DNA from: Anaerolineae bacterium | GTDB taxonomy: Bacteria > Chloroflexota > Anaerolineae > Promineifilales > Promineifilaceae | Reading direction: 5' to 3' | Length of the DNA stretch: 64,000 nt | Assembly: GCA_019637635.1 (NCBI GenBank) | Contig: JAHBVI010000004.1 | Coordinates: 6,497-70,496 of the forward strand | Part shown: positions 19,071 through 54,632 of the stretch, piece by piece | Numbering within the stretch: the first letter of the stretch is position 1 | Layout: every line of letters begins with the position of its first letter | Notes under the pieces: model-generated | The model's database searches: none | Seen by the model: only the letters and a program-made list of their open reading frames with translations | Told to the model about the DNA's origin: nothing | Made by a program: the position numbers and the translations under genes

Positions 19071-19661
19071 TCAGGACGTTTCAGGCGACGGCCAAAGCTG
19101 ATGGAGGGGCAGGTTAAAGCCGGGCAGGATGTCAGTCAGGGTGAGGGTATCGTTTAAGGTGAATTCTTGAATATCGGTAGGGGAACGGTGGAGGGCGAGG
19201 GTTTGCTCCTCCGGTTCGACGATGAGCACGGCCGTGACCCCTACCTCAAAATACTCTTTAATATTCTTGCGCACCTCGCTCCACCGATCAGAGGGGGACA
19301 TCACTTCCACAATGAGTTCCGGGGCCACATCCATAAATCCACCCGGCGTCACCTGCGCCAGCCGTTCATGGGAGATGAACAACACATCCGCCCCGCGTAC
19401 CGTATCCGGGTTCCGCCGGGTGTATACGCCCACTTCGCCCACCATAACCACACCTAAATTATGTTCCTCCACAAAATTTCCCAAAAACCTTGCCATTTCA
19501 AATTCATAACGGCCATGTAGCATCTTTGCCGGACTCAACTTCACAACCCTCCCTTCCACCAGTTCACACCGGCCCAGGTCGCCCATCGCCGCCAACTCCT
19601 CGCCGGTAATGAGCGCCTCTTCGTTCAATTTGGACTGGACTAAATCTTGTTGTGCAATCAT
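19071..19661 (-). CDS. Uma2-family (DUF820) putative endonuclease
   Basis: Typical Uma2 layout (ELVEGRVV..SPA...H, ..GAD.. , PELIVEV.SPSD). Start moved to ATG 19661 (MIAQQD); the upstream extension runs into a heptamer array. Confidence 0.7.
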   Translation of the reverse strand: MIAQQDLVQSKLNEEALITGEELAAMGDLGRCELVEGRVVKLSPAKMLHGRYEFEMARFLGNFVEEHNLGVVMVGEVGVYTRRNPDTVRGADVLFISHERLAQVTPGGFMDVAPELIVEVMSPSDRWSEVRKNIKEYFEVGVTAVLIVEPEEQTLALHRSPTDIQEFTLNDTLTLTDILPGFNLPLHQLWPSPETS

Positions 19662-19744
19662 GCTTCTCACCCTGCCAGACAGTTTCATCCTACCCGGCTG
19701 CCCGGCAGTATACACCATAAGAGACAAAGGCCGAAACCCCACCA

Positions 19745-19779
19745 CCGATAACCGATTACCGATTACGGATTACCGATTT
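19745..19779. repeat. heptamer tandem array (CCGATTA x5, variants)
   Basis: ccgataa ccgatta ccgatta cggatta ccgattt. Contains the stop codon of the BCCP gene (..EIGNP*). Confidence 0.9.
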
Positions 19780-20266
19780 CCACCAACACCTCATCCCGCG
19801 CTACCGTCTGCCCTGGCGTCACATGCACGGCCGTGACCACCCCACGCAACGGCGCTCGAATTTCGTTCTCCATCTTCATCGCTTCCAGCACCAGGATGGA
19901 ACTGCCCGCTTCCACGGCGTCGCCCACCTGCACCCGCATGTGCGTGATCAGGCCGGGAATGGGCGCTTTGACACGGCCGTCGCCGCTGCGGGGTCGGCTC
20001 ACCACTGCATCCAGGTCTCTAATCTCCAGCCGGTGCAGCCCGCTAAACGCCTTGATCCAGGTGAGATGGGGATCCATGACAAACTCATACGGCCGTTCAT
20101 CCACCACCAACCACTCCAACTCCCCATGCAACAGCGCCGCCTCCGGCAGCAGCACCTTCACCCGCTGCCCATCCACCTCCACCTCATAGCCCGACCCATT
20201 CGGCGACGGCAAATTCAACATTACATCATACGTGTGCCCGTCTATGGTGACTTGTAAGTTACTCAT
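19763..20266 (-). CDS. biotin carboxyl carrier protein of acyl-CoA carboxylase
   Basis: C-terminal biotinyl domain with EAMKMENEI (biotinyl-Lys in the AMKM motif). Confidence 0.8.
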   Translation of the reverse strand: MSNLQVTIDGHTYDVMLNLPSPNGSGYEVEVDGQRVKVLLPEAALLHGELEWLVVDERPYEFVMDPHLTWIKAFSGLHRLEIRDLDAVVSRPRSGDGRVKAPIPGLITHMRVQVGDAVEAGSSILVLEAMKMENEIRAPLRGVVTAVHVTPGQTVARDEVLVEIGNP

Positions 20267-20279
20267 AACGCCCTTGTTT

Positions 20280-20349
20280 CGTAACCCGTAATCCGTAAAC
20301 CGTAAACCGATTACGGATTACGCATCACGGATTACGGATTACCGATTCT
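20280..20349. repeat. inverted heptamer arrays (CGTAATC-type x4 then GGATTAC-type x6), hairpin-forming
   Basis: Ten consecutive 7-nt units read directly. The second half is the reverse complement of the first. Spans the BC/BCCP junction and supplies the BC stop codon (..RRIGNP*). Confidence 0.9.
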
Positions 20350-21813
20350 CCTGCTTTCCCGATGCCAACCCGTCGCCAACCGTTCCGGGGCCGCCGGGTC
20401 AAACTGCTGGTGCCGCCGGATATAGGTGATGGCGGCAATCACCGCCAGGTCGCGCAAATGGGGCGCGGCTGCGCCGTTTTCCAGGGCAGGTTCTTTGAGC
20501 GAGCCGGTGTGGTAACGGCCGTTCACAAACCCCTCCGCCTGTACAATCTGCTGCAATAACGGGATGTTCGTCGGAATGCCCGCCGCCGCAAAATCGGCCA
20601 ACCCCTGGCGCAGCCGGGCCATGCTGGCCACCCGATCCGGCCCCCAGGTTGTGAGTTTGGCAAAAAGCGGCGCATACGCCGCCGGTACCGGGCAACCACT
20701 ATAAGCATAGGTGTCTACGCGAATATCTGGCCCCGTTGGCAGCCGCAGCCGCGTTAACTTTCCCGGACTGGGCAAAAAGTGGCGCTGGGGGTCCTCGGCA
20801 TAAATACGGGCCAACATGGCCCAACCGCGCAACTGAACGTCCGCCTGCCGAAATGAGAGGGGTTCTCCCGCCGCGACGCGCAGTTGCTCTTGCACCAGGT
20901 CTACCCCGGCGCGCATCTCCGTCAGTGAATGTTCCACCTGGATGCGGGCTTTGATTTCGCTAAAGTAGAAACAGCCCTCATCCGTGACCAGGAATTCCAC
21001 CGAGCCGACATTTTGGTAGTGGAAAAGATGGGCAATGGCAACGGCCGTGTCACACAACTTCTGTCGTTGCGCTGGCGCCAGGCAAGGGGCGGGCGACTCT
21101 TCCACCACCTTCTGGTTGTGGTACATAATCGAGCCTTCTCGCTCGCCCAGGCAAACCAGGTTGCCGTACCGGTCGCCCAAAACCTGCACGCTAATCTGGT
21201 GAGCGGGCATGATCGCTTTTTCCAGATACACACGCAAATCGCTGTAGTCGGCCTGCGATTCCTGTCCCTGGCGAATGGCAGCCGCCAGCCACGTGGACGA
21301 CGGGACAAGACGAGAGCCACGCCCACGCCCGCCCTGGTATGACTTGATGACCAGCGGGTAGCCCATCATGTCGGCCGCTTGCTGCAATTCAATGGCATCC
21401 TCACGGCCGTAAGCCTCCGGCGAACTCTCTACCGTCAAAAAACCGGCCTCCCGCACCCGCGCCAGCGCCGCCAGCTTGTCCCGCGTCTGCTGCAAAATTT
21501 CCGGCGACGGCCCAATAAAGGTCAGCCCCGCATCCAGACACGCCTGGGCAAAATCCGCCTCCTCCGCTAAAAAACCATAGCCGGGATAAATACCGTCCAC
21601 CCCCCGCACCTGCGCCAATTGCACAATCGCCGGGACATCCATAAAAAAGTCCGGCGACTCCACACGCACACATTCATCCGCCAGCCGCACATGCAGCGAA
21701 TTAATATCGGAGGGATCGTAGACGGCCACGGCCGTGACCCCCATCTCCCGGCACGCCCGCACCGCCCGCACCGCAATTTCCCCCCGGTTGGCAATTAGAA
21801 TCTTGTTGAACAT
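20332..21813 (-). CDS. accC: biotin carboxylase subunit of acetyl/acyl-CoA carboxylase
   Basis: MFNKILIANRGEIAVRAVRACREMG N-terminus and ATP-grasp motifs. Start moved to ATG 21813; the listed extension lies in a repeat array. Confidence 0.85.
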   Translation of the reverse strand: MFNKILIANRGEIAVRAVRACREMGVTAVAVYDPSDINSLHVRLADECVRVESPDFFMDVPAIVQLAQVRGVDGIYPGYGFLAEEADFAQACLDAGLTFIGPSPEILQQTRDKLAALARVREAGFLTVESSPEAYGREDAIELQQAADMMGYPLVIKSYQGGRGRGSRLVPSSTWLAAAIRQGQESQADYSDLRVYLEKAIMPAHQISVQVLGDRYGNLVCLGEREGSIMYHNQKVVEESPAPCLAPAQRQKLCDTAVAIAHLFHYQNVGSVEFLVTDEGCFYFSEIKARIQVEHSLTEMRAGVDLVQEQLRVAAGEPLSFRQADVQLRGWAMLARIYAEDPQRHFLPSPGKLTRLRLPTGPDIRVDTYAYSGCPVPAAYAPLFAKLTTWGPDRVASMARLRQGLADFAAAGIPTNIPLLQQIVQAEGFVNGRYHTGSLKEPALENGAAAPHLRDLAVIAAITYIRRHQQFDPAAPERLATGWHRESRRIGNP

Positions 21814-21833
21814 CTCCACCTTCCTGAATAGGG

Positions 21834-21900
21834 TGGCAGGTTGCAGGTTGCAAGTTGCAGGTAAAAGCACTCACCTGCCACTTGCTACTTGCCACTTGCC
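21834..21900. repeat. inverted heptamer arrays (TTGCAGG x4 / ACTTGCC x4)
   Basis: tggcagg ttgcagg ttgcaag ttgcagg - 11-nt spacer - acctgcc acttgct acttgcc acttgcc. Lies at the CT/BC junction. Confidence 0.85.
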
Positions 21901-21907
21901 ACCCTCT

Positions 21908-23467
21908 CTACATCGGCGAAATCCCATGTTTGCGGGCCACGTGCCGCTCCCGTTTGGAGAGTGTCAGTTCCAGCGCCCGGATCAGGGTGCGGCGCGTATC
22001 GCGGGGCTGGATCACATCATCAATCAGCCCCCGCGCCGCGGCCACATAGGGATTGTTAAAGCGCGTCTCGTAATCTTCTACCAACTCCTGCCGTCTGGCA
22101 TCCGGGTCGGCCGCTTCCTGCACCTCTTTGCGGAAGAGAATGTTGACCGCCCCTTCCGCGCCCATCACCGCAATTTCGGCATTGGGCCAGGCGTAGAGCA
22201 GGTCGCCGCGTAACCCTTTGCTGCTCATCACACAGTACGCGCCGCCATAACTCTTGCGCAAAATGACCATCAGCTTGGGCACGGTAGCCTCACTGTAGGC
22301 GTAAATCAGCCGCGCTCCGTTGCGAATGATGCCGCCATACTCCTGGTCTTTGCCCGGCAAGAAGCCGGGAACATCTTGCAGGGTGATGATGGGCACGTTG
22401 TAGGCGTCGCAAATGCGGATGAAGTGGGTGGCTTTGATACTCGCCTTGATGTCAATGCAGCCCGCCAGCACCATCGGCTGGTTGGCGACGATGCCCACCA
22501 CATACCCATTGAGCCGGGCGAAACCCACCACCATGTTTTGCGCCCACAGTTGATGCACTTCAAAGAAACGGCCGTCATCCACCAAACTGGCAATCACCCG
22601 GCGCACCTCATACGGCTTGTGTGGGTCGGTAGGTACGATTTCTTCCAATTCCGGGCAGGGGCGGTGGGGGTCGTCGAGCGGCCGCATATACGGCGGATCA
22701 TCCTGGTTATTGCCGGGCAGGTAACTGAGCAGTTCCCGCACCCGCGCCAGGCACTCTTTATCGTCGCCGGTCAGAAAATGGCAGACGCCGCTCTCCTGGC
22801 TGTGCATCAGGCCGCCGCCCAACTCCTCAAACGTCACGTCTTCCTGCATCACCGCCTTCACCACCTGCGGCCCGGTGATGAACATGTAGCTCTTCTCCGT
22901 CATAAACACAAAATCCGTCAGCGCCGGAGAATAAACCGCCCCACCCGCGCACGGCCCCATGATGACGGAAATCTGGGGGATGACGCCGGACGCCTCACAG
23001 TTAGCGTCGAAAATTTTGGCGTATCCGCCCAGGCTGTCTACCCCTTCCTGGATGCGCGCCCCGCCGGAGTCGTTGATGGCGATAAACGGGCAGCCATACT
23101 GCAAGGCCATACGCATCGCTTTGGCAATTTTGTTGGCGTGCATCTCCCCCAACGAGCCGCCCATCACGCTGGCATCCTGAGACGCAGCCATGACGTGACG
23201 GCCGTTGACCAGCCCAAAACCGACCACCACCCCATCGCCATAACGTGACCCCTTACCACCCACATAGTTCTCATACCGGGGCAGCGCCAGGGAATCAATC
23301 TCCTCAAACGTGCCCGTATCAAACAGCAAATCCAGCCGCTCACGGGCCGTCAGCCGCCCTTTGGCGTGTTGGCTGGTGGTGTCCTTCTCCGTCCCCCGCG
23401 CCTGGCACTTCCGCTTATCCAATTCTTCCTTGTAGACCTGCATCTCTTTAATCATCTTCAACCTCAC
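21908..23467 (-). CDS. acyl-CoA carboxylase carboxyltransferase subunit (PccB/AccD5-like, fused beta-alpha CT)
   Basis: About 520 aa. Motifs include GRLTARERLDLL, GGARIQEG, GPCAGGAVYSPALTDF and GGAYCVM, typical of the propionyl/acetyl-CoA carboxylase beta chain. Confidence 0.85.
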   Translation of the reverse strand: MRLKMIKEMQVYKEELDKRKCQARGTEKDTTSQHAKGRLTARERLDLLFDTGTFEEIDSLALPRYENYVGGKGSRYGDGVVVGFGLVNGRHVMAASQDASVMGGSLGEMHANKIAKAMRMALQYGCPFIAINDSGGARIQEGVDSLGGYAKIFDANCEASGVIPQISVIMGPCAGGAVYSPALTDFVFMTEKSYMFITGPQVVKAVMQEDVTFEELGGGLMHSQESGVCHFLTGDDKECLARVRELLSYLPGNNQDDPPYMRPLDDPHRPCPELEEIVPTDPHKPYEVRRVIASLVDDGRFFEVHQLWAQNMVVGFARLNGYVVGIVANQPMVLAGCIDIKASIKATHFIRICDAYNVPIITLQDVPGFLPGKDQEYGGIIRNGARLIYAYSEATVPKLMVILRKSYGGAYCVMSSKGLRGDLLYAWPNAEIAVMGAEGAVNILFRKEVQEAADPDARRQELVEDYETRFNNPYVAAARGLIDDVIQPRDTRRTLIRALELTLSKRERHVARKHGISPM

Positions 23468-23530: not shown

Positions 23531-24205
23531 TCACCCCACCGCAATCGTCAACACAAACCCATCCTCCACCCGCCACCAGCCGGTTAAGGGGGGGGCAGGG
23601 CGGGGCAAACGGCCGTTATCACAGCGAATGGCAAAGGGCGTCCAGATTCCCGGCGGCTGGGCCACCGGCTCAATCAGGCAGCTTACGGCGCGGGTGTTCA
23701 CCGACAGCCCCAGGTGCAACGCTTTCAACACCGCTTCTTTGGCGCTCCACACGGCCGTTTCCCAAACCACCCGCTCCTGCCCCACCAGCCCATACCCCAG
23801 AGCAATCTCCGCCAGCGTAAAATACTCTTCGGCAAAGCCCACCGGGCGTGACTGGATCAATTCTATATCGGCCCCGATGGGAGCGTGTGCTCTTTCGGTG
23901 GCGGCCACAAAGGCACGGCCGTGTGCATGACTGATGGAAATGGAAAAGCGGTGATCGGTAATCGGTAATCGGTAATCGGGGACGCCATCCGCGTTGTTGG
24001 TGATCGTGATCATGTCCAGGGGCAGCGTCACGCCGTTCGTTTCCCAGATGACGGTTTGCAGCAGCCGCTTGGCCGTCCAGCGCCCCAGCAGCCAATCCGC
24101 GCGCCGTTTGTCCGTCTTCAACTCCTGAAACCGCGCCAATTCCGTCTCGGTCAAATAATCACATGCCGGAATCTCGTGGTGCGTTTGTGTCAACCAATGA
24201 ATCAT
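23531..24205 (-). CDS. Sfp-type 4'-phosphopantetheinyl transferase
   Basis: PPTase motifs IGADIE and WSAKEAVLKA. Size about 220 aa. Confidence 0.75.
   Translation of the reverse strand: MIHWLTQTHHEIPACDYLTETELARFQELKTDKRRADWLLGRWTAKRLLQTVIWETNGVTLPLDMITITNNADGVPDYRLPITDHRFSISISHAHGRAFVAATERAHAPIGADIELIQSRPVGFAEEYFTLAEIALGYGLVGQERVVWETAVWSAKEAVLKALHLGLSVNTRAVSCLIEPVAQPPGIWTPFAIRCDNGRLPRPAPPLTGWWRVEDGFVLTIAVG
23949..23979. repeat. heptamer array (CGGTAAT x4) inside the PPTase coding sequence
   Basis: cggtgat cggtaat cggtaat cggtaat. On the sense (-) strand it reads ATTACCG and encodes ..DYRLPITDHRF.. Confidence 0.9.
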
Positions 24206-24391: not shown

Positions 24392-26959
24392 CTACAAAGT
24401 GACCTGGCCTGGCAATGAAACTGTTTTGTAGCCCGTCAGGGTCAGGTAAACAGCGCCTTCCGTGTCCACAACCTGAGCGTTGAACTCTTCGCCGCCGTTG
24501 ACAGCTTCCACAATGGCATACAGGCGACGGCCGTCCACCACCTCCCGCTCCTGCCGATAAACCGATACCGCGCCAATCGCCAGCGGCAGGGCCATCGTCT
24601 GCCGCTGCCGGATTTGCCACACACCGGCCGTCTGGAAGCACAGTTCAATCAGGCGCGGGGCCAACAGTTCCAGCGCATCCGCCGGATTCATGTTAGGCGG
24701 CAAATTCTCCGCCAGCAGCCCAATCGCCCGGCTGCCTTCCACCTGCACCGCTTCTAGCACCTGATACGCCGGGCCGTGGAAGTAGATGTCATAAATCGCC
24801 TCTTTGCCGATGTCCAGTGTAGCCGGTGGGGTGAAATCAACCGACGCCACCTCTGCTGGTTTACGACTCATGCACACTGTAGCTGTAAAGTGCAGTTTCT
24901 CCTGCAAACCTCCTTTCAATTCACGGCGAGAATGGAGGGCCGCATACACCAGCAGATCGTCGCCATCGGGCACGGCCGTACCGCGCAAATACAACGTCTG
25001 CGGTTCCATCCGGTAAAACTTAAAGGGAGCGTGGAACTGTTCGTTGAATACGGCCGTGACGTGATAATCCGGCGCGATGGTCTGGGCCAATTCCGCAAAC
25101 GCCTCCGTCCCCATCACCCCCGGCAGCAGCGGCGTCCCCTCCATGGCATGGTCATAGAGAAACGGTTGCTCCTTTGGGTCCAACACCGTTTCCACTTCCC
25201 ACCCGCCATACACCTTCGCCGCCGCCAAGCCACCAACCAACAAAAACTCCTCTGCGCCCCCGCGTCTCCGCGTTAAAATCCCGCCGCTTTCATCCCACTC
25301 ATCCACCAGCAAACCCAGTTTGCCGCCCACCAGCACCTCGCCGCCGCCTACCAGCAACTCCCGGCGTACAGTGGGAATCCCGGCAGCCGGTGGCAGCATC
25401 TCAATGCCCGCATACTCCATAATCTTGGGAATCGAGCCGCGTGTGGCCATGCCTATGCCGCCCCAGGCCGTCCAGTCAATGGCAATCGCCTTTGTCTCTG
25501 GCCGTGTCCGTTGCCGGCTGCTGGTGAGTTTGCACAGCAGGTCATTGGCCGCGCTGTAATCCGTCTGCCCGGCGTTGCCAAAACGGCCGGCTACCGAACT
25601 AAAGACCACCGTCGCCGCAACAGGCAAATCCTGGGCGGCGTGCAGCAGGCTGTAAAAGCCGTCCGCCTTGATGTCATACACCAGGTCAAACTGGGCGGCG
25701 TCTTTCTGGTTCAGCGCCTTGCTGATTTCAATGCCGCCGGCATGAACCAGCACGTCAATCCGGCCAAACTGCTGGCGGATTTCGGCCACGATCCCGGTCA
25801 GGGCCTCATGGTCGAGCAAATTGACGCTGCGATACACGGCCGTGCCGCCAACCTTTTCCACCGCCTCAATCGCGCTCAACGCCGCTTCCAACCGCTCCAC
25901 CGCTGCCAGCTTCTTCTCAATCATCACCGGCGTCGGCTTTTCACCCGCCACCTTTGTTTCTTCAATAAGCTGCTGCTTCAAGGCATCCTTGTCGGCGCGG
26001 AAAAGGGCAATTTGGGGATCGGCGCGGTCGGGTTCCGGCGTCAAGTCCAGCAGGTAGAACGTGCCGCCGCTGGCTGCGGCCAGGTCGGCCACAATGGCGC
26101 TGGTAATGCCACCCGCCGCCCCCGTCACCAGGAAAACCTGTTTGTCTGGCTGTGGCCGGTGTCCCCACCGAGCCACGTCGGGTGGCACGGTCTGAAGACC
26201 GGCCACAGCATCATAAGTTGCGGGTTGTTCCATCAAGGTGATGGTGTAACGGCCGTCCCGCCAATACCCCACCTCCACACAACCCGGATCCGCCAGCGTT
26301 TCGGCAATCAGAAGGTCGGCAAAAGCGGCCGTTTTGCGGCTGGCCTCAAAATCTACGGCCTTCACCAGGACGGACGGCCGTTCCCGTTTATACGCTTTGG
26401 TAAAGCCGGTGACGCCGCCGCCCAACGGAGCGATTGCCGGTTCCGGCCCATAGCCATGCAGCCCGCCCATTCGTGTGGCGGATACCAGGAACGCGCCCGG
26501 TTCGCACACCGCGTCATACAGCGCCCGCATGGTCACAGCCAGGTTTTTCACCCGCACCCGGTTCGCCTCCCGCCAGTCAGCCAGGGACATCGTCGCCAGA
26601 TCAGGCTCCACGTCCAGCGCGGGCAGCCAGTAGACACCCTGCACCGGCCCTTCGGCCAGCCAGGTTTGCGCCTGCGCTGCTACCGCTTCGGCAGCCAGGG
26701 CCACGTCCAGCAGCAGCACGGCCACGCCCAGCTTTTCCAGCTTTTTAACCAGCGCCTTACCCACGCCGCCCTCGTCCAGGGCCACCACCACGCGGCTGGC
26801 TTCGTTTAAGAGGACGCCGGTTGGTTTGCATTGGGTGAGCGACGGCCGTAAGGCGGGCATCGGTACGCGGCGGGGCATCGTGTCCGCATCGGCCAGGGTA
26901 TATTCCGGTTCAATTTGGGGAATCAGGGGTGGCGCAGTGGTCGTCTCCGGGGCGACCAC
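24392..26959 (-). CDS. polyketide/PUFA-synthase-type ketoreductase + PS-type dehydratase protein (pseudo-KR / KR / DH)
   Basis: Rossmann motif FLVTGAAGGITSAIV and KR catalytic YSAAND. DH motif LYDHAMEGTPLLPGVMGTEAF (HxxxGxxxxP). GTG start 12 nt after the megasynthase stop. Confidence 0.8.
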   Translation of the reverse strand: MVAPETTTAPPLIPQIEPEYTLADADTMPRRVPMPALRPSLTQCKPTGVLLNEASRVVVALDEGGVGKALVKKLEKLGVAVLLLDVALAAEAVAAQAQTWLAEGPVQGVYWLPALDVEPDLATMSLADWREANRVRVKNLAVTMRALYDAVCEPGAFLVSATRMGGLHGYGPEPAIAPLGGGVTGFTKAYKRERPSVLVKAVDFEASRKTAAFADLLIAETLADPGCVEVGYWRDGRYTITLMEQPATYDAVAGLQTVPPDVARWGHRPQPDKQVFLVTGAAGGITSAIVADLAAASGGTFYLLDLTPEPDRADPQIALFRADKDALKQQLIEETKVAGEKPTPVMIEKKLAAVERLEAALSAIEAVEKVGGTAVYRSVNLLDHEALTGIVAEIRQQFGRIDVLVHAGGIEISKALNQKDAAQFDLVYDIKADGFYSLLHAAQDLPVAATVVFSSVAGRFGNAGQTDYSAANDLLCKLTSSRQRTRPETKAIAIDWTAWGGIGMATRGSIPKIMEYAGIEMLPPAAGIPTVRRELLVGGGEVLVGGKLGLLVDEWDESGGILTRRRGGAEEFLLVGGLAAAKVYGGWEVETVLDPKEQPFLYDHAMEGTPLLPGVMGTEAFAELAQTIAPDYHVTAVFNEQFHAPFKFYRMEPQTLYLRGTAVPDGDDLLVYAALHSRRELKGGLQEKLHFTATVCMSRKPAEVASVDFTPPATLDIGKEAIYDIYFHGPAYQVLEAVQVEGSRAIGLLAENLPPNMNPADALELLAPRLIELCFQTAGVWQIRQRQTMALPLAIGAVSVYRQEREVVDGRRLYAIVEAVNGGEEFNAQVVDTEGAVYLTLTGYKTVSLPGQVTL

Positions 26960-26970
26960 CAGGCCACCCT

Positions 26971-29900
26971 CTAGGCTTTTAAATCCGACGGCTGCTCCAC
27001 AACAACTACCAGATCAGGCCGCATCTCCCGCACAAACCCCACCACCTTTGCCAGTGTGTTGTAGTCGCGCAGGCTCAGGTCGTCGCGGCGAGGGATGTCA
27101 AACTCTTGCCGGATCGCCAGGAACGTTTCTGCCTGTTTCACCGTGTCTACCCCTAAATCCGCTTCCAAATCCAAGTCCATTTCTAGCATGTCCGTCGGGT
27201 AGCCGGTTTGTTCGGCCACGATGGCCAGCACTTTGTCGGCGATGGGATCGGAGATTGGAGATTGGAGATTGGGAGATTGAGAGATTGGGGGGGCGACCTG
27301 CTCACTGCTCACTGCCTGCGGACGCTGCGTCTGCCGCTCACTTTTCACCAGATCGGGCCGCATCTCGCGCACAAACTCCACCACCTTCGCCAGCGTGTTG
27401 TAATCGCGCAGGCTCAGGTCATCGCGGCGGGGAATGTTGAACTCGGTACGAATCGCCAGGAACGTCTCCGCCTGTTTCACGGTGTCTACGCCCAAATCCG
27501 CTTCCAGGTCTAAATCCATTTCCAACATATCCGTCGGGTAGCCGGTCTGTTCGGCCACAATCGCCAGGATTTTGTCGGCAACGGGATCGGAGATTGGAGA
27601 TTGGAGAGTAGAGATTGGGAGATTGGGAGATTGAGAGATTAGCGGAGCGACTTGCTCACTGCTCACTGCCTGCGGACGCTGCGTCCGCCGCTCACTGTCC
27701 ACTTTCTGTGCGCCACCATTTGCCGGCACCGCTTCCACTTTCACGGGGGCGGGCTGTGGCGTCACGGCCGTCGGCTGATTATTCACCGGCCTCGGCTGCA
27801 CCTGAACTGACGCGGGCATAGGCGATGGTACGGCATACGGCTCACGGGCTACGGTAAACGGATCACGGATTACGGCATACGGATTACCGCCCCTCGTCCG
27901 CATTACCGGTTCCGTGCCATACTGCCAGGTGGAGGGACACGGCCGTTTACCCGGCGCACCCCTGGCTACAATGCGTAAATTCCGCTTTTCCACTTCCAGT
28001 TCCGCATAATCGTAGCCGCTGATGGCGTCCAGCCATTGCTGGTAACGCGGTTTGCTGTCCACCCGATCCAGCGCGCCGGGAATGCGCCGCGTCAGCGTGA
28101 GGGAAATTTGCGAACCAAAACCGGCGGCCAGATGCAGCGCGTACTGCACCGGATAACGCCCACCCCGGCTCAGGTTCAACTCGCCCAAATCGGGGTCAAC
28201 TTCTTTGTAATTGGGCACTGGCGGCACAATGCCGTGTTCCAGGATTTTGAGGGCGATCACATCTTCCACGCCCACGCCCATGGGATGGCCGGTGAACCCT
28301 TTGGTATTGGCCACCACAATCTCTTTGGCTGCTTCGCCAAAGGTTTGGCGCAGCGCCACTACTTCCGCCGAGGCCGAGCCGCCCCGCGCCGGGGTATACG
28401 TTTCGTGGGACATAAAGACCAACTGTGGCGCGATGGTGTAGCGATTCAGGCCAAAGCGGTATTCGGCAACAGTCATCAGGTCGTTCATCACCTGGGCAAT
28501 GTGATCCACGTCCAACCGCGAGCCATGAAAGGCGCTGTTGCGGGTTTCGCTGCTCAGTAGCTCCACAATGCCGCGCATCCCCCGCTCTTGCACCGCGTCT
28601 TCACTTTCCACCACCAGCGCACAGGCGCCCATGCCCAAGATGGTGCCATGCCGCCGTTTGTCAAAAGGCAGCGCGGCTTCTTCCACCCGGTCATCGGTAG
28701 CGGCTGCCCCCAGCGCCAGGAAACCGGCGCCAATCCATTCCAGCAGGTGGTCGCCGGTCACATCATCGGCAGCAATGACCAACACGCGGCGGCAACGGCC
28801 GTTCCTGATCCAATCCTCCGCTATGCCAATTGCCTGGGTGGTGCTGGCGCAGGCCGCATTCACCTGCGTATTGGGGCCGCGTGCGCCAATGTACTCGGCA
28901 AACTGGCTGTGCCCCATGGAGAGAATGCGGAAGATGAAGCGCCGGTCAAAGACATACGCCTCTCGCGCCAGCGTCTCACGCAGGTCATTGATGCGCCGCG
29001 TGATTTCCAGCAAGGTCTGGTTATCGGTGCAGGTTCGGCGCAGTTGATCCAGCATCTCCAACTGCTCGACGCGATTCTGGTAAACGTAGAAGCGTTCAAA
29101 ATCTTCCACAAACCGGTCACCGCCGGGGAAGGCGCTGGCAAAAATCACGCCCGTCTCGTCGCGCAATGACTCCGGCAGCATCCAACGCTGCGGCAGGTAA
29201 GAGCCATTGCTGGTATTTTTGTAGGTCATCACCAGGGGGATGCCCGCTTCGCGCAGGGCGTCCAGCCCGGCGGCAAAGGCCAGTTGCGTGGTCACATCCA
29301 GCGAATCCACCAGCTTTTGTGGCACGCCGTATTCGGCCGCCAGGTCAAAGGTTCCGGGACGGCCGGCCAGTTTGATCACGTCATCGCTGTTGTCAATGGG
29401 GGCAAAACTGCCACCGCCATTTTCGTCTTTGATCAGCCGGGTGATCCGCTTGCCCACCATCTTGCGCCGGAAACGTTCAGGGATCAGGTCTACAAACTGT
29501 TCACCCTGCAAAATGCGCCAGGCGTTGTCCGGGGCCATCACCGCCTTCTCCGCCCCCGGCAGCCCCAGCCCCGTGCCGCTAATGACGACGGAGCCGAGAG
29601 GGGGGTGGGCGCGGTTGTACGGCTGCGCCGAGATTGGAGATTGGAGATTGGAGATTGGGAGATTGGGAGATTGGAAGGCGTTCATTGGCTGCCCGGTTGT
29701 TTCCGGGGCTACGGCCGTAGCCATCCCGTTTGTTACTTTCATCACAGGTTCCTCCATTTGGTTAACTGAAGTAAGAGTTAGAGTCCCGGTTTTAATCTCT
29801 AATCTCCGATCTCCAATCTCTGTAACATAACCCGCCGCATACAATGCGCACAATGCCTGATTAAAAGCGGGCAGTTCGCCGGGTTTGGGATGGTTGGTCA

Positions 29901-32607
29901 TCAGGGCCAGCACATCGTTTTTGTCTTTAAATACATCGTTGGCAAAACCGCGCAGGGCGCGTTTGGGGCCAACTTCCACAAAGGTGCGCACACCAAAGTC
30001 ATAGAGCGTGTGCAGCCCTTTCACCCATTGCACGGTGGCGGCCACCTGTTGTTGCAGGTTGTCTTTGATGGCATTTACCGTTGTCGGGTAAAAATCACCC
30101 GTCACATTGGTCACAATGGGTAAGGTGGGCGGGGCGATGTGCAGCCGATCCAGCACCCGGCGCAGCGGCGCGCTGGCAGGGGCAATGATGCTGGTGTGGA
30201 AGGCGTGGCTGACGGGGATGATCATCGCCTGAAAGCCCGCTTCCTGGAAAAGGGTCACGGCCGTTTCCACCGCCGCACTCGCTCCGCCAATCACACATTG
30301 GCTGCTGCTGTTGATATTGGCCGGAATGACGTAACCGTCCACCTGCTTCAAGGTGGCCTCGATTACGTCATACGGGGCCAGGACGGCGGCCATCTTGCCG
30401 TTGTCGTCCAGCTTCAAATGAGCCATCTCGCCGCCCCGTGCCGCCGCCGCTTCCAGCGCATCGGCAAAGGGCATAATGCCGGCCACAATCAGCGCCGCAT
30501 ACTCACCCAATGAATGACCCATCACCACATCCGGGCTGAAACCAAACGATTCCAACAGCCGGTACATGGCAATGTCCATTGTCAGCATCGCCGGTTGGGT
30601 GATTTCCGTTTGCATCAGGTCAAAGGTGGCTTTGTTCACGGCGGCGTTATCGTTCGGGTCAACAAAAATGTAATCGGTCAGCGGTTGGCCCAAAATCGGC
30701 TTCATCACCGCATCCGCTTCGTCAAAAACGGCCTGCACTTCTGGATAGAGCGCGGCCAGTTCGCGGCCCATGTTCACATACTGGCTGCCCTGGCCGGGGA
30801 ACATGAAGGCAATCTTGCCTTCCGGTTTGCCTGCACCACGATAAATGCCCTGCGCCTCCATCGCTTTCCACGCCGGCGGCGAGTCAGAGACCATCACCTT
30901 CTGCGCCTTTTGCAGCCGATCCAGCAGTTCCACCTGATCGCCAAAATCAATAAACAGCCGCTCATTAGCGGCAATAACCATCGGTTCGGGCAGTTCTCGC
31001 GGCGGCGTCCAACCCGTCTCCACCCGACTGAGATATTGGTCTAGTTTCTCCTTCAATTCCTGCGGCGTCGCCGCACCAATGGCGGCAATGCCGCGTGGGG
31101 GAGATTGGAGATTGGAGATGGGAGATGGGGTTGAATCTCCAATCTCTACTCTCTGATCTCTCTTCTCCACCGCAAACACCTTCTTCGGCTGCGTCAGTTC
31201 ACCAGGGCGGTGTTCTTCCAACACCAGATGGAAATTGGTACCACCAAAGCCATAGGCGCTGACGCCGGCGCGGCGGGGTGTGCCGTTGGGTGGTTCCCAG
31301 GCACGGCCGTCGTGCAGCAAATAAAACGGCGTCTGGCTGAAATCCACATAGGAATTAGGCGGGTTAGCATTCAGCGTCGGCGGCAGGATTTTGTGGTGCA
31401 AGGCCATCACGGTTTTGAACATGCCGGCTGCGCCCGCGCCGGCCTTCAGGTGGCCGATGTTGCTCTTGACCGACCCCAGGCCGATGCTGTTTGGCCTGGC
31501 ATAACCAAATACGGCTGCCAGACTCTCCACTTCGGCCACGTCCCCCACCGGGGTGCTGGTGCCGTGCGCTTCCACCAGGGTGGCTGTGGCCGGGTCCAGT
31601 CCCGCCGCTTCCCAGGCGCGCTGCATGGCTAACTGCTGCCCGATGGGGTTGGGCGCGGTGATGCCCTTACCTTTGCCGTCACTGGCCCCGCCCACACCAC
31701 GAATGACGGCGTAAATTTTGTCGCCGTCCCGTTCTGCGTCTTCCAGCCGTTTCAGCAGGAAGAGGGCCGCCCCTTCACCCATGACAAAACCATCGGCGCC
31801 ATCACCAAACGGCCGTGTGCCCGTCGCACTCAACGCCCCAATTTTGCAGAACTTCACAAACGGCCCAATGCCCATATTGCGGTCTACGCCGCCGGTGATC
31901 ACCGCGTCTACCTTGTGTTCAAAAAGCAGTTCCAGCGCCGCTTCCACGGCGGCAAAGCTGGAGGCACAGGCGGCGTCGGTGATGAAGTTGGGGCCGCGCA
32001 AATTGAGCATGTTGGCGATACGGCCGCTGACGATGTTGGGCAGTTCGCCGGGCATGGAGTCTTCGGAAATGGGTGGGTACTGCTCGTCAATGTGGTCATG
32101 CCAGCCGGCCAGGATGGCCTGGCGGGTGGGCGTGGGCAGGGCGGCAAATTCGGACACGGCCGTCAGCGCCCGCGCATAGTTGGGGAAGACGATCCGTTCG
32201 TTGGTGGTGTAGTGCAGTTCCCCGCCCATAGCCGTGCCGATGATAGTGGCGGTGCGTTCGGTGTCTAACGGCCGTACCGGATGCCCATAATCGGCCAGCA
32301 CGTCGGCGGCAATGGTCAGCGCCCACTGCTGCCCCTCGTCCATGGCCGCCGCCACTTTGGGCGGCATCCGAAAACGCTTCCAATCAAACTGAAAGCCCCG
32401 CACCCAGCCGCCAATTTTGGTGTATGTCTTGTCTGGCGCTTTAGGGTCGGGGTCGTAATAATCGGCAATAGACCACCGCTCCGGCGGCGTTTCCGTGATG
32501 CTGTATCGTTTGTTGAGGATGTTTTGCCAGAATGTGGCTGCGTTCAGCGCCTCCGGCATAATGGCCCCCACCCCCACAATGGCAATGGCTCGTTCACTTG
32601 AGTCCAT
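26971..32607 (-). CDS. type I FAS/PKS megasynthase: KS - AT(malonyl) - KS(2, with insertion) - ACP-like - ACP-like
   Basis: KS1: DAACASS / EAHGTST / [11 protein letters not shown]: FPGQGSQ, GHSLGEY, HAFH. KS2: NAACASTT / SHETYT / TGHPMG. Two carrier domains with [11 protein letters not shown]. Start set to ATG 32607 (MDSSER) with GGAGG 6 nt upstream. Confidence 0.85.
27251..27287. repeat. GAGATTG heptamer array in the inter-ACP linker (coding)
   Basis: gagattg x3 then ggagattg agagattg. The sense strand encodes ..[11 protein letters not shown].. Confidence 0.9.
27589..27641. repeat. GAGATTG heptamer array in the pre-ACP1 linker (coding)
   Basis: ggagattggagattggagagtagagattgggagattgggagattgagagatta. 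Encodes ..[18 protein letters not shown].. Confidence 0.9.
27827..27889. repeat. nine-unit NNNACGG heptamer array inside the megasynthase coding sequence
   Basis: ggtacgg catacgg ctcacgg gctacgg taaacgg atcacgg attacgg catacgg attaccg. Encodes [21 protein letters not shown]. Confidence 0.85.
29630..29674. repeat. GAGATTG heptamer array in the AT-KS2 linker (coding)
   Basis: gagattg x4 plus ggagattg x2. Encodes ..[18 protein letters not shown].. Confidence 0.9.
29793..29820. repeat. opposite-orientation (CAATCTC-type) array 120 nt from the 29630 array, also coding
   Basis: taatctc taatctc cgatctc caatctc. Encodes ..[10 protein letters not shown].. Could pair with 29630-29674 in the mRNA. Confidence 0.85.
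31101..31168. repeat. inverted heptamer arrays (hairpin) in the KS1-AT linker (coding)
   Basis: gagattg gagattg gagatgg gagatgg ggttg aatctcc aatctct actctct gatctct cttctcc. Encodes ..[24 protein letters not shown].. Confidence 0.9.
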
Positions 32608-32625
32608 GAGATACCTCCGCAAAAA

Positions 32626-32698
32626 GGAGATCGGAGATTAGAGATTGGAGATTGGCGTTCGCTGGACGACCAATCTCTAATCTTCAATCTCTAATCTC
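32626..32698. repeat. inverted heptamer arrays at the ACAD/megasynthase junction
   Basis: ggagatc ggagatt agagatt ggagatt gg - 14-nt loop - ccaatct ctaatct tcaatct ctaatctc. Overlaps the ACAD stop codon. Confidence 0.9.
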
Positions 32699-34349
32699 AA
32701 CGAAATGCTTTATTCAACTGCTCTGCCGCAAAATCCATATCCCCCACCAGCCCCTCCTGCACGGCATAAATGCCGGGCAGGTCGAGGGATTGGGCTAATG
32801 CCGGATCAGTCTGCCCCGCGCCGATGGCCCAGCGCAATCCTTCGGTGGCAACTTTGAGGGCGGCGTCACGGCCGTGAATCCGGCTGAGCGCCTGCCGGGT
32901 GGGTACGTCCAGGTGGATGGCTTCGGTGGGTTTGTCGGCTACCCGTTCGGCGAAGATGGCGGCCGTTTCCGCGTAGGCGATGAGTTCACCCAGGCGGAAC
33001 AGCACATGCTGGCTGCGCGTCAGCCGATCCAGGCGACAGCGTTCCAAAATAACGGCCAACGCCCGCATGGCCAGGGCCGCATAATTGGCCCCATTCTCCG
33101 GCTGCTCCTGGTGGATGAGCGAGAGGCGGTTGGCCCACTCCTTGTAATAATCGCCGCGTGATTTCAGATGCAACTGCCAGCGGTCGCGGGCAATCGTCCA
33201 CTCCATAATCTCCGACGTGCCTTCGTAAATGGTGGTGATGCGCACATCGCGCTTGATTTTTTCCACCAGATACTCTTTGGTGTAACCGTATCCGCCGTGG
33301 GCCTGGATAGCATCTTCGGCCGCTTTGTTGCCTGCTTCGGTAGCCATGTATTTGGCCACCGCCCCTTCCGTTTGCAGCCCTTCTTCGCCGCTGTCCAGCC
33401 GTTCGGCCACCCATTCAATGTAGCTGCGGGCCGCTTCCAGCCGGGCGGCGTTGGGCACAATCAGCTTGTGGGTGTAGCCTTGTTTCTGGCTGAGGGGTGC
33501 GCCGCCCTGGATGCGCTCTTGTGAATAGCGAATGGCGCGTTTGAGGGCCTCCCAGCCCGCGCCCAGCCCAAACGCGCCCACCATGAGACGGGTGTAGCCA
33601 AAAACGGCCTGCGCCTGGGCCAATCCCTGCCCTTCTTGCAGACCCACCAGCCGGTCGGCGGGCACGTAGACGTTATCGAGGAAGAGAGCGGCCGTGTTGC
33701 TGGCGCGGATGCCATGTTTGTCTTCCGGTTTGCCGCGTGTGAACCCTTCGCTGTCCCGGTCTACGATGAACCAGCTTGGCCCACCGGGGGCCAGCGCCAG
33801 GATGGTGTACAGATCGGCCACACCGCCGTTGCTGATCCACTGTTTCTGCCCGGAGATGCGGTAGCCGGTGACGACGCCATTTTCAATAACAGGTTCGGCT
33901 TTGGTGGTCATGGCGGCTAAATCGGAACCGGCCTGCGGTTCGGTAGCGCCATAGGCCATGAGCAGTGCTTCTTCAGCGATACGGCCGTACCAAACCTTCT
34001 TCTGCTCTTCTGTCGCCCCCACACTGATAGGGTCGGAGCCGAGAAAGGTAGCCAGGACGCCGGTAGCCACACCCAGGTCAATGGCGGCCATCAATTCGGC
34101 CACGCGGTAAATGTCATACGCGCCGCCGCCCAGCCCATCATATGCTTCGGGGATGAAGAGCAGGTGCAGCCCCAGAGACATGGGGTCATACAGTTCTTGC
34201 AAAACTTCGTGGGGGAATTCGTCGTTGTGGTCTAGTTTGAGTAGATAATCGGGGGTGAGTTTTTTGTCAGCATACTTTTTCAGGGTGTCCAGGATCATGT
34301 CGCGGGTTTCTTTGTCCAGGCCGACGGCCGTTTCTTCCATCTTTAACAT
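32697..34349 (-). CDS. acyl-CoA/acyl-ACP dehydrogenase-family flavoprotein with an approximately 150-aa C-terminal extension
   Basis: ACAD motifs ([34 protein letters not shown]). 550 aa versus about 380-400 for canonical ACADs. Confidence 0.8.
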
Positions 34350-34757: not shown

Positions 34758-35825
34758 ATGGCTAAAATGACAACTGCTTTAGTTTCCCGTTTTGTGTCCC
34801 CCCAGGTCAGGCAAAAACCCCTCGTCAGTTTGATTGTGCCTACGCTCAATGAAGAGCGCAATCTCCCCCAACTTTTTGCTTCAATCCCTGACATGGTGGA
34901 TGAGGTGGTGTTGGTTGACGGCCGTTCCACCGACCGCACCGTGGCATTGGCCAAAGAATTACGCCCAGACATCGTCGTTGTCCACCAGAAAGGCAAAGGC
35001 AAGGGCAACGCGCTGCGCCAGGGTTTTGAAGCCGCCAGCGGCGAGATCATCGTGATGATAGACGCCGATGGCTCTACCAACCCCGCCGAAATCCCCAACT
35101 TTGTGGGCGCTTTGTTAGCCGGCGCCGATTTTGCCAAAGGCTCTCGTTTCATGCAGGGTGGTGGCACATCCGACATGGAACCGCATCGGTATCTGGGCAA
35201 TCAGTTTTTTGTCTGGACGGTGCGCCTCCTGTTTGGTGGCAAATATACCGACCTTTGCTATGGCTACAACGCTTTCTGGACCTGGACACTGCCGCTGTTA
35301 AACCTCAATGGCGATGGTTTTGAAATCGAGACGATGATGAACGTGCGGGCGCTGCAAGCCGGCCTGCGTGTGGCCGAAGTGCCCAGCTTTGAAAACCGGC
35401 GTTTTATGGGCCTTTCTAACTTGAATGCTTTTCGGGATGGATTCCGCGTTTTGGGCACCATTTTTAAGGAATGGCTCAATAATCCCGGTCTGCGCGCCGT
35501 GAAAAAACATGAAAATTCGGTCGCCCAGGAAACCTTTGAAGAAGCCTTCCACGCCCTGCTGGAAGATACAAACGAATTTGTGAAAATGAGCCACCAGTTG
35601 CCCAATGACCGGTTAAAGCATTTGGCTGCCAAACTGCTCGTTCGCTTCGACGCCCTCATGTCCACCGAGATGAACTGCGCCGTCTGCCACGAACTGCAAA
35701 CGCGCTATGCCGAACATTACCGGGACATTTACGCCAACTACTTGCTCTCGTATATCCAGAAGGACAAGGGTGGGGCGGCGCCACTCCCTCAGCCCGTTTT
35801 CCAAACGGCGCCTTTGTCCCGCTAA
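34758..35825 (+). CDS. GT2-family glycosyltransferase (dolichol/polyprenol-phosphate hexosyltransferase-like) with C-terminal extension
   Basis: VSLIVPTLNEE..., DGRSTDRT, and DADG (DxD) motifs typical of DPM1/GtrB-like GT2. Confidence 0.75.
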   Translation: MAKMTTALVSRFVSPQVRQKPLVSLIVPTLNEERNLPQLFASIPDMVDEVVLVDGRSTDRTVALAKELRPDIVVVHQKGKGKGNALRQGFEAASGEIIVMIDADGSTNPAEIPNFVGALLAGADFAKGSRFMQGGGTSDMEPHRYLGNQFFVWTVRLLFGGKYTDLCYGYNAFWTWTLPLLNLNGDGFEIETMMNVRALQAGLRVAEVPSFENRRFMGLSNLNAFRDGFRVLGTIFKEWLNNPGLRAVKKHENSVAQETFEEAFHALLEDTNEFVKMSHQLPNDRLKHLAAKLLVRFDALMSTEMNCAVCHELQTRYAEHYRDIYANYLLSYIQKDKGGAAPLPQPVFQTAPLSR

Positions 35826-35869
35826 CCAATACTTCTGCCTCAGAATCAGGAATTGAATAATTTGTATAC

Positions 35870-35917
35870 GATGGGAGATTAGAGATTGGCAATTCGCCCA
35901 GGCTCTAATCTCCCATC
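35870..35917. terminator. hairpin built from GAGATT-type units after the GT2 gene
   Basis: gatgggagattagag - 18-nt loop - ctctaatctcccatc. Perfect 15-bp stem, 45 nt after the stop codon. Confidence 0.5.
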
Positions 35918-35956
35918 CTGGCTACAACCATTATTTGATTCATCTCTTCACTTCCA

Positions 35957-37519
35957 TTGATGATGAATAATAGAAACCTTCCGGCAAATGCCTATCAAAT
36001 TTTGCTTATTGAAGACGACGTAAGCGCCTCCCGATTAATTTCGGCGATGTTGGAACGAGGGGGGTACACCGCCCTTATCGCCAATTCGGGCAATGAGGGC
36101 ATCACCTTAGCTCACCAAAAGCGGCCTGATTTAATTTTGTGCGACGTGATGATGCCCGACATCACCGGGCTGGACGTCTTGCGCGCCCTGCAGAAACAAT
36201 CTGACACGGCCACAATTCCCTTTATTTTCCTGACGGCCCTGGCCAGACAGGAAGATATGCGGGTGGGCATGGAATTGGGGGCAGACGATTACCTGACCAA
36301 ACCGATACATACAGACGTACTGCTCAATGCGGTTGGCAGCCGCCTTAAACGGCACCAGCAATTGCAGACGGACCGGTTAGCCCATTTTACACAGCGGCTG
36401 GTGCTGTCACAGGAACACCAGCAGCAGCAGATGGCTTCTATGCTGGATGACAAGCTCAACCAATCGCTGCGCAGCCTGCAATTTGTCTTGAACATGTTGG
36501 CAGCGCCCGCACACGAAGACGCTTCTTTGTACAACGGGGCAAAGGAGATGTTGGGGGAATTAATTCTACAAGTGGAGGGGATGGCCCAGGAAATGCATCC
36601 GACGATTCTGGCGCGCCTGGGGTTAGCGCCAACGCTCCGTTGGCTCTCCGAACAATACGAGTTGGCCATTGAACTGGATATGCCGTCAGTGGCTTACCAG
36701 TTTGAGCCGAGGGTGAAGGTGTGTGTATTTCGCCTGGTGCAAGAAGCACTAAACAATATCCAACGTCACGCCCAAACGGATCATGCTAAAATTTCGCTGA
36801 ATTACGTAGCGCCGTACCTGGAGGTACGCATTGAAGATAAAGGGACGGGGTTTGACCTGGAGCGCACCTTACAATCAAGCCAGAGCATGGGTTTGCAATA
36901 TATGCATGGATTGGTGGCCTGGGTGAATGGCGAACTGCATGTCACATCCGGGCCAGATGAGGGCACGGCCGTTTATGCGCTGCTGCCTCAAGCCAATGCC
37001 GTGCCCATCAACACCTCGCCCGTTTCACCGGATTTGCTGCGCCTGGCCGGCCGTACCCGACCAATAGAACCAACGGAAGACACGGCCGTAACCGTCAAGA
37101 TATTACTGGCTATTGAACAACCCTTACAGTTACAGGGGATGTACAAGTTATTGGCGCGCAATCCCCACTTTGAGGTAGTCGGCGAAATTCAGGATTTGAC
37201 CCAGGTTGCGGACGCCATAGACACATACCAACCACAGTTGCTTATCATCAATCCGCTCACCGAGGGCAAAAGCCAGGCAGAGGTATTACAATCCATCATC
37301 GCCGTGCGTCCGGGCACGGCCGTGTTGGTCATCAGCACCGCCACCCATGAAGAATATGTACGCGCCGCTTTTGAGAGTGGTGTGCTTGGCTATATCCCCA
37401 ACACGGCCACCATTACCGATTTGCACACCGCCATCATGCGCGTCGCCCGCAATCAATACTACGTCAGCCCTGGCCTGTCATTTGATCTGGCGCAGTGGCA
37501 AGAAGCACAGGCAGTCTGA
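35957..37519 (+). CDS. hybrid REC - HisKA_3/HATPase_c histidine kinase - C-terminal pseudo-receiver
   Basis: N-terminal REC (LLIEDD, LILCDVMMPD, FLTA, DDYLTKP). His box QEMHPTILARLGL, N box EALNNIQRHA, G box DKGTGF. C-terminal NarL-like REC fold with Asn at the phospho-acceptor position (LLIINP). Confidence 0.7.
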   Translation: MMMNNRNLPANAYQILLIEDDVSASRLISAMLERGGYTALIANSGNEGITLAHQKRPDLILCDVMMPDITGLDVLRALQKQSDTATIPFIFLTALARQEDMRVGMELGADDYLTKPIHTDVLLNAVGSRLKRHQQLQTDRLAHFTQRLVLSQEHQQQQMASMLDDKLNQSLRSLQFVLNMLAAPAHEDASLYNGAKEMLGELILQVEGMAQEMHPTILARLGLAPTLRWLSEQYELAIELDMPSVAYQFEPRVKVCVFRLVQEALNNIQRHAQTDHAKISLNYVAPYLEVRIEDKGTGFDLERTLQSSQSMGLQYMHGLVAWVNGELHVTSGPDEGTAVYALLPQANAVPINTSPVSPDLLRLAGRTRPIEPTEDTAVTVKILLAIEQPLQLQGMYKLLARNPHFEVVGEIQDLTQVADAIDTYQPQLLIINPLTEGKSQAEVLQSIIAVRPGTAVLVISTATHEEYVRAAFESGVLGYIPNTATITDLHTAIMRVARNQYYVSPGLSFDLAQWQEAQAV

Positions 37520-37536
37520 CGCCAACCCGAGGTTCC

Positions 37537-38469: not shown

Positions 38470-38499
38470 CCAGGAGGCCTGGCTTACGGTATAAACAAC

Positions 38500-38533: not shown

Positions 38534-38556
38534 ATGGGTATTTTAGGATTGATTTC

Positions 38557-53645: not shown

Positions 53646-53649
53646 AAAT

Positions 53650-54392: not shown

Positions 54393-54632
54393 ATGAGTGA
54401 TACACAGACTCGTATAACCGCTATTATCGTGGATTTATTAGGCGTAGACGAAGAACAGGTAGTGCCTGAAGCGCGTTTCCGCGAAGACCTGGAAGCTGAT
54501 TCGCTGGATTTGGTCGAACTCATTATGGCTTTTGAAGAAGAGTTTGGCGGCGAAATTTCCGATGATGAAGCCCAAAAAATCACGACTGTGGGCGAAGCGG
54601 TTTATTACATTGACCATCGTATGGCGGTTTAG
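54393..54632 (+). CDS. acpP: acyl carrier protein (canonical, discrete)
   Basis: [20 protein letters not shown] with the canonical DSL phosphopantetheine site. 79 aa. Confidence 0.9.

Follow-up and report, generated by a model that had tools for sequence, protein, structure and literature searches.

The closest described relative of the system considered here is the Type R secondary lipid synthase, which consists of a pfaA homologue with the domain order ketosynthase (KS), malonyl acyltransferase (MAT), chain-length factor (CLF), three to six acyl carrier protein (ACP) domains and ketoreductase (KR), together with a downstream phosphopantetheinyl transferase (PPTase) (Shulse and Allen 2011, PMC3098273). 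Members have been reported from Roseiflexus, Koribacter, Solibacter and Elusimicrobium, and the authors noted an acetyl-CoA carboxylase gene inside one of the clusters; threonine is unmentioned in their paper (PMC3098273). In this study we analyze a 64,000-nucleotide stretch of DNA, referred to as the window, from an Anaerolineae bacterium of the Chloroflexota (Promineifilaceae; NCBI GenBank assembly GCA_019637635.1, contig JAHBVI010000004.1, positions 6,497 to 70,496 of the forward strand). The window contains an operon that matches this uncharacterised Type R synthase. Its central gene codes for a megasynthase of the fatty-acid/polyketide type that ends in two tandem ACP-like domains.

The serine to which 4'-phosphopantetheine is attached is held to be a defining and universal feature of carrier domains, and domain detectors, PROSITE patterns, vocabularies of post-translational modifications and proteomics searches all assume that this residue is present. 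For example, the PROSITE pattern PS00012 demands Ser in the (D/E)xGxDS(L/I) motif. Both domains of the window megasynthase have Thr at this position. We present evidence that this Thr is shared by a large family of synthases, and propose that the two domains are working tandem carriers whose Thr probably bears 4'-phosphopantetheine attached by a co-encoded, clade-specific PPTase of the Sfp type.

Results

Threonine at the attachment position of both carrier domains

The carrier domains, their Thr codons, the PPTase and the one other carrier gene discussed below are located in the window as follows.

27349..27588, minus strand: ACP-like domain 1, 80 aa, with a four-helix carrier fold (Pfam PP-binding, AlphaFold2, Foldseek)
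27481..27483, minus strand: Thr codon ACC of ACP-like domain 1, residue 1714 of the listed open reading frame (ORF), within GTA GAC ACC GTG AAA CAG (V D T V K Q)
27010..27249, minus strand: ACP-like domain 2, 80 aa, with 94% protein and 85.4% DNA identity to domain 1
27142..27144, minus strand: Thr codon ACG of ACP-like domain 2, residue 1827, within GTA GAC ACG GTG AAA CAG
23531..24205, minus strand: Sfp-type 4'-phosphopantetheinyl transferase, 224 aa, proposed Thr-modifying enzyme (Pfam ACPS and 4PPT_N)
54393..54632, plus strand: discrete AcpP with a canonical DSL motif, outside the cluster, serving as an internal control (sequence motif)

A first-pass annotation of this DNA had reported Thr instead of Ser in both domains and a canonical DSL motif in the discrete AcpP. 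Both observations hold when the minus-strand codons, the ORF translation and the AcpP motif are re-read. The annotation had further taken the two differing Thr codons as a sign of selection rather than of sequencing error or a recent copy, and in this it agrees with the codon statistics, with independent contigs and with RNA reads. Specifically, the two domains are separated by 25 synonymous and 5 non-synonymous codon differences, and both copies are thus under purifying selection. A related strain that is 95-99% identical to the window is present in contigs of two sludge metagenomes, and its G>C difference at position 27481 converts ACC to ACG with Thr retained; the differences that adjoin this position (27484, 27487 and 27463-27475) are third-position changes too. 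Metatranscriptome reads that cover the ACP region at a depth of approximately 10-25x contain the same variants as the sludge contigs, so this region is transcribed. The annotation had named read-level evidence for Ser codons as a possible refutation, and the independent contigs and the metatranscriptome reads encode Thr at 27481-27483.

The remainder of each domain had been described as fitting the PP-binding fold, and three lines of analysis bear this out. Pfam PP-binding (PF00550) matches in two stretches with 40.9 bits against a cut-off of 20.8. When domain 1 is compared with PDB chains by phmmer, its Thr falls on the Ser that bears phosphopantetheine in PigH and in the ACPs of Plasmodium falciparum, Aquifex and Staphylococcus aureus. 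An AlphaFold2 model of the domain, built from 28 diverse family members, has a pLDDT of 94.1 and a four-helix ACP fold (helices 2-15, 36-50, 60-63 and 66-76) in which helix II starts exactly at Thr36, and Foldseek superposes this model on holo-ACPs with TM scores of 0.83-0.85 and root-mean-square deviations (rmsd) of 1.4-1.7, as exemplified by the holo P. falciparum ACP 3gzm (TM 0.83, rmsd 1.4). When 28 diverse Thr-type domains are aligned, G16, Y17, E29, L32, G33, D35, T36, K38, Q39 and T65 prove invariant. The context for PPTase recognition is retained, with L32, G33 and D35 ahead of the Thr and K38 (+2) behind it, and helix II is invariant too.

Spread and invariance of the threonine

The alignment of homologous megasynthases that had been suggested as a check on the first-pass observation indicates that Thr is family-wide. 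Among the 120 closest homologues (59-100% identity, mostly Chloroflexota), which have one to seven ACP copies per protein, Thr is present in 471/471 ACP motifs and all of these read DLG[IV]DTVKQAETF. A scan for LG[IV]DTVKQ[AV] in one genome per GTDB species returned at least 600 matches, from which the best 80 loci were analyzed. These 80 loci come from Chloroflexota, Acidobacteriota, Myxococcota, Gemmatimonadota, Actinomycetota (Acidimicrobiia), Calditrichota and one metagenome-assembled genome (MAG) of Leptospiraceae, and together with the window they have Thr in 290/290 motif copies, encoded by ACG (141), ACC (125), ACA (14) and ACT (10). Thr is thus invariant and under selection across the family.

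An exhaustive phmmer search with domain 1 against 1.84 billion cluster representatives retrieved 5848 proteins at E<=0.001 and 694 at E<=1e-30, and the best 150 representatives were classed by their site residue. Thr is present throughout in 109 of these (404 copies) and Ser throughout in 34, with three mixing Thr and Ser and four having one odd copy; the all-Ser proteins are of the PfaA type (DSIKRVEIL) or of the DSIKKAQLF type. Counted over the domain copies of relatives, the site is occupied by 877 Thr and 190 Ser with single occurrences of A, D, G and C, and nearly all of the 190 Ser copies sit in proteins that are Ser throughout. Identity to the window domain is only 41-84% among the Thr-type domains. 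Judged by these sequences, Thr-type tandem carrier domains are present in relatives that number in the hundreds and span no fewer than seven phyla.

Cluster look-ups also found Thr-type tandem ACPs in two further settings. One is a 3514-aa protein (MGA1872031.1, P0164) assigned to a Thermoplasmatota archaeon MAG, a case that could reflect either horizontal transfer or a binning error. The other is a set of Desulfobacter polyketide synthases of approximately 3900 aa (WP_319493995.1, P0191).

The residues next to the site vary with its identity. At position +1, Val follows Thr in 378/387 unique domains while Ile follows Ser in 141/152, and at position +3 Gln is found in 386/387 Thr domains as opposed to Arg or Lys in Ser domains. 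In other ACPs, the +1 position is known to affect compatibility with the PPTase (PMC11744666). Thr and Ser copies share one tandem array in three proteins, and a domain tree computed with the site masked requires roughly five switches between Thr and Ser, a number that is approximate as the tree is a rough neighbor-joining tree on 80 columns. In this tree a Ser domain (DSIKQAEAF, domain 1 of P0229) is nested among Thr domains. Such mixing within arrays and such switches would be expected if both residues do the same job. Covariation of the neighboring residues, mixing within arrays and the association with a PPTase motif described below link the site with a closely fitting partner interface.

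The co-encoded PPTase

The gene at 23531-24205 had been called a PPTase, and its Pfam matches indicate that it is a genuine one. The family of enzymes found beside Thr-type ACPs keeps G111, D113 and E115 (GxDxE) as well as W153-S154-x-K156-E157-x-x-L160-K161 (WSxKExxLK). A profile of this family aligns to residues 21-174 of Sfp (1qr0, 4mrt) with E=6e-11, pairing GIDIE with GcDlE and WSMKESFIK with WSaKEsvLK; the aligned catalytic positions are what we take to be D107/E109 and E151/K155 of Sfp. The Mg ligands and the catalytic Glu and Lys are thus in place, and the enzyme is predicted to be catalytically intact.

This PPTase gene is syntenic with the synthase and not with acpP in 64/80 loci, across Chloroflexota, Acidobacteriota, Myxococcota, Gemmatimonadota, Actinomycetota and Calditrichota. 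Additionally, a [DN]TR motif occurs 13-15 residues after the catalytic motif in 50/52 PPTases that are encoded beside Thr-type ACPs, as compared with 0/22 PPTases beside Ser-type relatives (81 loci). A fuller form, GL..DTR after WSxKExxLK, is common to the operon-type PPTases; in the window enzyme this motif spans residues 166-172 and has NTR.

Is the threonine phosphopantetheinylated?

In the mechanism that we propose, the two domains would function as acyl carriers in an iterative lipid megasynthase that resembles a polyunsaturated fatty acid (PUFA) synthase. The co-encoded Sfp-type PPTase would transfer 4'-phosphopantetheine from CoA onto the hydroxyl of the Thr at the N-terminus of helix II, and it is this step, modification of the Thr by the co-encoded enzyme, that we infer. 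The acyltransferase (AT) would then put malonyl on the pantetheine thiol, and the tethered chain would be worked on by the KS, KR and dehydratase (DH) domains together with an acyl-CoA-dehydrogenase-like (ACAD-like) protein. The operon would amount to a self-contained synthase with an acyl-CoA carboxylase to provide malonyl-CoA, an AT, two KS domains, a KR, a DH and the ACAD-like protein, which is probably its enoyl reductase or dehydrogenase. We also lean, with somewhat less assurance, towards a broader proposal: O-(4'-phosphopantetheinyl)-threonine may be natural and widespread, the [DN]TR-marked clade of Sfp-type PPTases may have evolved for a Thr acceptor, and the resulting pair may be insulated from the housekeeping AcpS/AcpP system, serving a type I lipid synthase that is self-contained and found among Chloroflexota, Acidobacteriota, Myxococcota, Gemmatimonadota, Acidimicrobiia and further groups.

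Several points weigh against modification of the Thr. Thr is a good helix N-cap residue, and part of its conservation could therefore be structural. The canonical AcpP of this genome could in principle act in trans. We know of no Thr-linked phosphopantetheine, and the vocabularies of post-translational modifications known to us list the serine form only. Full-text literature searches found no published Thr-linked phosphopantetheine, nor did they find the strings DTVKQ or LGIDTV in a carrier-protein context, and there is no solved structure with Thr at the site, the closest solved relative being the PigH ACP doublet with Ser. The association of [DN]TR with Thr-type ACPs may stem from the shared ancestry of a PPTase clade and not from specificity, and the Ser copies that occur within Thr arrays are mostly the most divergent copies. 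Finally, E. coli ACP with the S36T substitution is reported to be unmodifiable by 4'-phosphopantetheine and non-functional (PMC3340395), in line with the first-pass annotation, so the canonical AcpS system refuses Thr.

The first-pass annotation had left three options: that the co-encoded PPTase modifies the Thr, that the domains are structural with intermediates carried by an ACP in trans, or that a different residue is the attachment site. The first of these is favored by the absence of a conserved Ser, the absence of a nearby Ser-type ACP and a syntenic, apparently intact PPTase, while the other two are weakened. The second option would have the ACP-like domains as unmodified structural or scaffold elements in which the Thr, as a helix N-cap, maintains the fold but blocks phosphopantetheinylation, with a Ser-type ACP such as the AcpP at 54393 working in trans and the PPTase serving that ACP. 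The favorable N-cap character of Thr, the behavior of the E. coli S36T protein and the presence of a canonical AcpP in the window would all suit this reading. However, mere N-capping would predict a mixture of Ser, Asp, Asn and Thr and not the 877 Thr and 190 Ser that are seen with only single exceptions; the residues for PPTase recognition and helix II are invariant; and the number of copies varies from one to seven as in PUFA synthases. The AcpP in the window, moreover, is its only canonical acpP, lies 27 kb from the Thr-type ACPs and directly follows homologues of paaA, paaB, paaC and paaD (51226-54632) rather than belonging to a fab cluster; no fab genes were found among the ORFs scanned within the 64-kb window. 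We also considered a Ser-type ACP hidden in the cluster, but the 10-kb flanks of the Thr-type ACPs have neither a canonical AcpP-like ORF nor a Ser-type PP-binding domain in any locus (80/80), and the PPTase keeps company with the synthase rather than with acpP. Structural domains with an ACP in trans are therefore possible but not parsimonious, and we regard this reading as unlikely.

Less likely again is that the Thr bears some prosthetic group other than 4'-phosphopantetheine, such as another CoA-derived or nucleotide-derived phosphodiester. Phosphodiester-linked cofactors on Thr do exist, as with flavin mononucleotide (FMN) in NqrC and RnfG. Against this, the operon has just one conserved candidate for the transferase, a PPTase of the Sfp type with CoA/Mg catalytic motifs, and the AT, KS, KR and DH domains are all of kinds that act on pantetheine thioesters. 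The third option, an attachment residue elsewhere in the domain with the Thr being incidental, has nothing to recommend it beyond the lack of Ser at the canonical site, and we consider it very improbable. The alignment of 28 diverse Thr-type domains, examined for a true attachment Ser at another position, has no conserved Ser anywhere in the domain, and a shifted alignment onto a nearby Ser was rejected since the window domains have a single Ser (DLSLRDY), which the family does not conserve. Ser-type PfaA-like ACPs likewise keep T65 and the T15 of the TGY motif, so these two residues are structural. That the Thr is a sequencing or assembly artefact or the mark of a decaying pseudogene can be practically dismissed: independent assemblies and RNA reads are concordant, variation at the site is synonymous, Thr is common to hundreds of independent genomes and both copies are under purifying selection. 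The independent contigs, RNA reads and codon statistics likewise rule out a recent duplication.

The megasynthase and its operon

The remaining genes and domains of the operon are located as follows.

26971..32622, minus strand: megasynthase KS1-AT-KS2-ACP-ACP, 1883 aa as listed (Pfam KS, AT, second KS and two PP-binding)
~31210-32589, minus strand: KS1 domain of the megasynthase
~29965-30813, minus strand: AT domain of the megasynthase, with GHSLGE and HAFH
28075-29595, minus strand: KS2 domain, which on alignment with KS1 keeps Cys-His-His (Cys ~28840-28860, His ~28393-28413 and 28276-28296)
24392..26959, minus strand: KR-DH gene, 855 aa (Pfam KR, PS-DH and PKS_DH_N)
32697..34349, minus strand: ACAD-like gene, 550 aa, directly upstream of the synthase (Pfam Acyl-CoA_dh N, M and C)
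19763..23467, minus strand: carboxyltransferase (21908-23467), biotin carboxylase (20332-21870) and biotin carboxyl carrier protein (BCCP; 19763-20266), downstream of the PPTase (Pfam)

The listed megasynthase ORF starts with TTG at 32622, and a database protein of 1878 aa fits an ATG at 32607. As the Cys and both His residues of KS2 align with those of KS1, this domain is not a classical Cys-less chain-length factor, and the domain that was labelled CLF for Type R may be active as a second KS. The KR-DH gene is a separate ORF that starts with GTG 11 nt past the megasynthase stop (26959-26973). In most homologues it is fused to the synthase to give proteins of approximately 2900 aa, whereas the closest relatives (~1820-2100 aa) are split likewise, and the related strain in the sludge contigs has no difference within the megasynthase stop codon. 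The ACAD-like protein, which has approximately 160 extra C-terminal residues without a Pfam match, is kept immediately upstream of the synthase in 66/80 loci across phyla. It is a candidate for the missing enoyl reductase, or for a (desaturating) dehydrogenase that would work on the chain while this is bound to the carrier. The acyl-CoA carboxylase genes presumably supply malonyl-CoA. In tblastn comparisons with the 80 related loci, the ACAD-like gene was found in 66, KS-AT-KS in 73, KR-DH in 75, the PPTase in 64, biotin carboxylase in 44, BCCP in 36 and the carboxyltransferase in 23. The gene order is alike in these loci, many of which are cut by contig ends. The operon ends with the BCCP gene, which is followed immediately by a gene for a putative endonuclease of the Uma2 family (19071-19745).

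The window also contains a 7-nt tandem repeat, CAATCTC, with 34 matches of a 15-mer versus 0.13 expected. Within the megasynthase ORF it occurs at 27250-27271, 27589-27617, 29629-29657, 29793-29821 and 31100-31147, such that the inter-domain linkers of the megasynthase are built from this repeat and read as SPISNLQ peptide repeats. Its occurrences at 32626-32699, 35874-35888, 52763-52822, 60028-60087 and 62372-62400 are mostly between genes or at gene ends. CAATCTC stretches in the sludge metagenome contigs have a depth 30-70 times that of their flanks, so the repeat is dispersed genome-wide.

The regions 34758-48589 and 57589-63414 code for many glycosyltransferases (GT2, GT4), a BcsB-like cellulose synthase subunit and an O-antigen ligase-like protein of the Wzy_C type, along with GtrA, a protein of the NAD-dependent epimerase/dehydratase family (best Pfam match GDP-mannose 4,6-dehydratase) and two STAND NTPases. 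These regions look like an exopolysaccharide region that flanks the lipid operon.

Discussion

The gene family to which the window synthase belongs is known but uncharacterised, and its family-wide Thr appears to be undescribed before this study. If the Thr is modified as proposed, a new residue would enter the chemistry of phosphopantetheinylation, and it would come from a large and phylogenetically broad family. The PPTase would then have a new acceptor specificity and, with its carrier domains, could serve as an orthogonal pair for protein labelling. Thr-type domains may at present be scored as inactive by automated pipelines. The analysis also draws attention to an uncharacterised operon for a self-contained lipid synthase, which is abundant among bacteria of wastewater and soil.

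Comparison with known systems

The change that distinguishes the window domains is identical to that of the E. coli AcpP S36T protein. The E. coli substitution, however, is engineered, whereas the window Thr is a selected natural state that is accompanied by its own PPTase. A precedent for a phosphodiester-linked prosthetic group on a Thr hydroxyl is provided by the FMN-phosphoryl-threonine of NqrB, NqrC and RnfG, which is installed by ApbE, although that system has a protein fold, a transferase and a cofactor with no relation to those considered here. By sequence, the closest solved structure is the tandem ACP doublet of PigH from prodigiosin biosynthesis (PDB 5y08; E=1.2e-19 with the family profile), which is a tandem pair too but has Ser at both sites and acts in a different pathway.

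PUFA synthases of the PfaA type (LGIDSIKRVEIL type) share with the window megasynthase an arrangement of tandem ACP repeats of 70-80 aa after KS-MAT. The ACPs of both have a common KTGYP...DLGID.[IV]K framework, and in the exhaustive search those of PfaA are the next relatives. They differ in that PfaA ACPs have Ser-Ile-Lys-Arg where the window family has Thr-Val-Lys-Gln. Identity of the window protein with PfaA was rejected, as its best NCBIfam match (TIGR02813) scores 751.9, under the cut-off of 1010.1, and the partner genes are missing: pfaB, pfaC (KS-CLF-DH-DH) and pfaD (FMN enoyl reductase) were not found among the neighbors or the other scanned ORFs of the window.

The Type R synthase is alike in its domain order and in its downstream PPTase. 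Compared with its description, the window synthase has two ACPs instead of three to six, a separate KR-DH ORF and a KS2 with Cys-His-His, and the ACAD-like gene and a full set of acyl-CoA carboxylase genes belong to the conserved neighborhood. Roseiflexus, one of the genera from which Type R was reported, is represented among the homologues of the window megasynthase by P0085 and P0101, which are named Roseiflexus sp. by their source, plus P0102. These match with 2853-2916 bits at 66-67% identity, and all of their ACP motifs have Thr.

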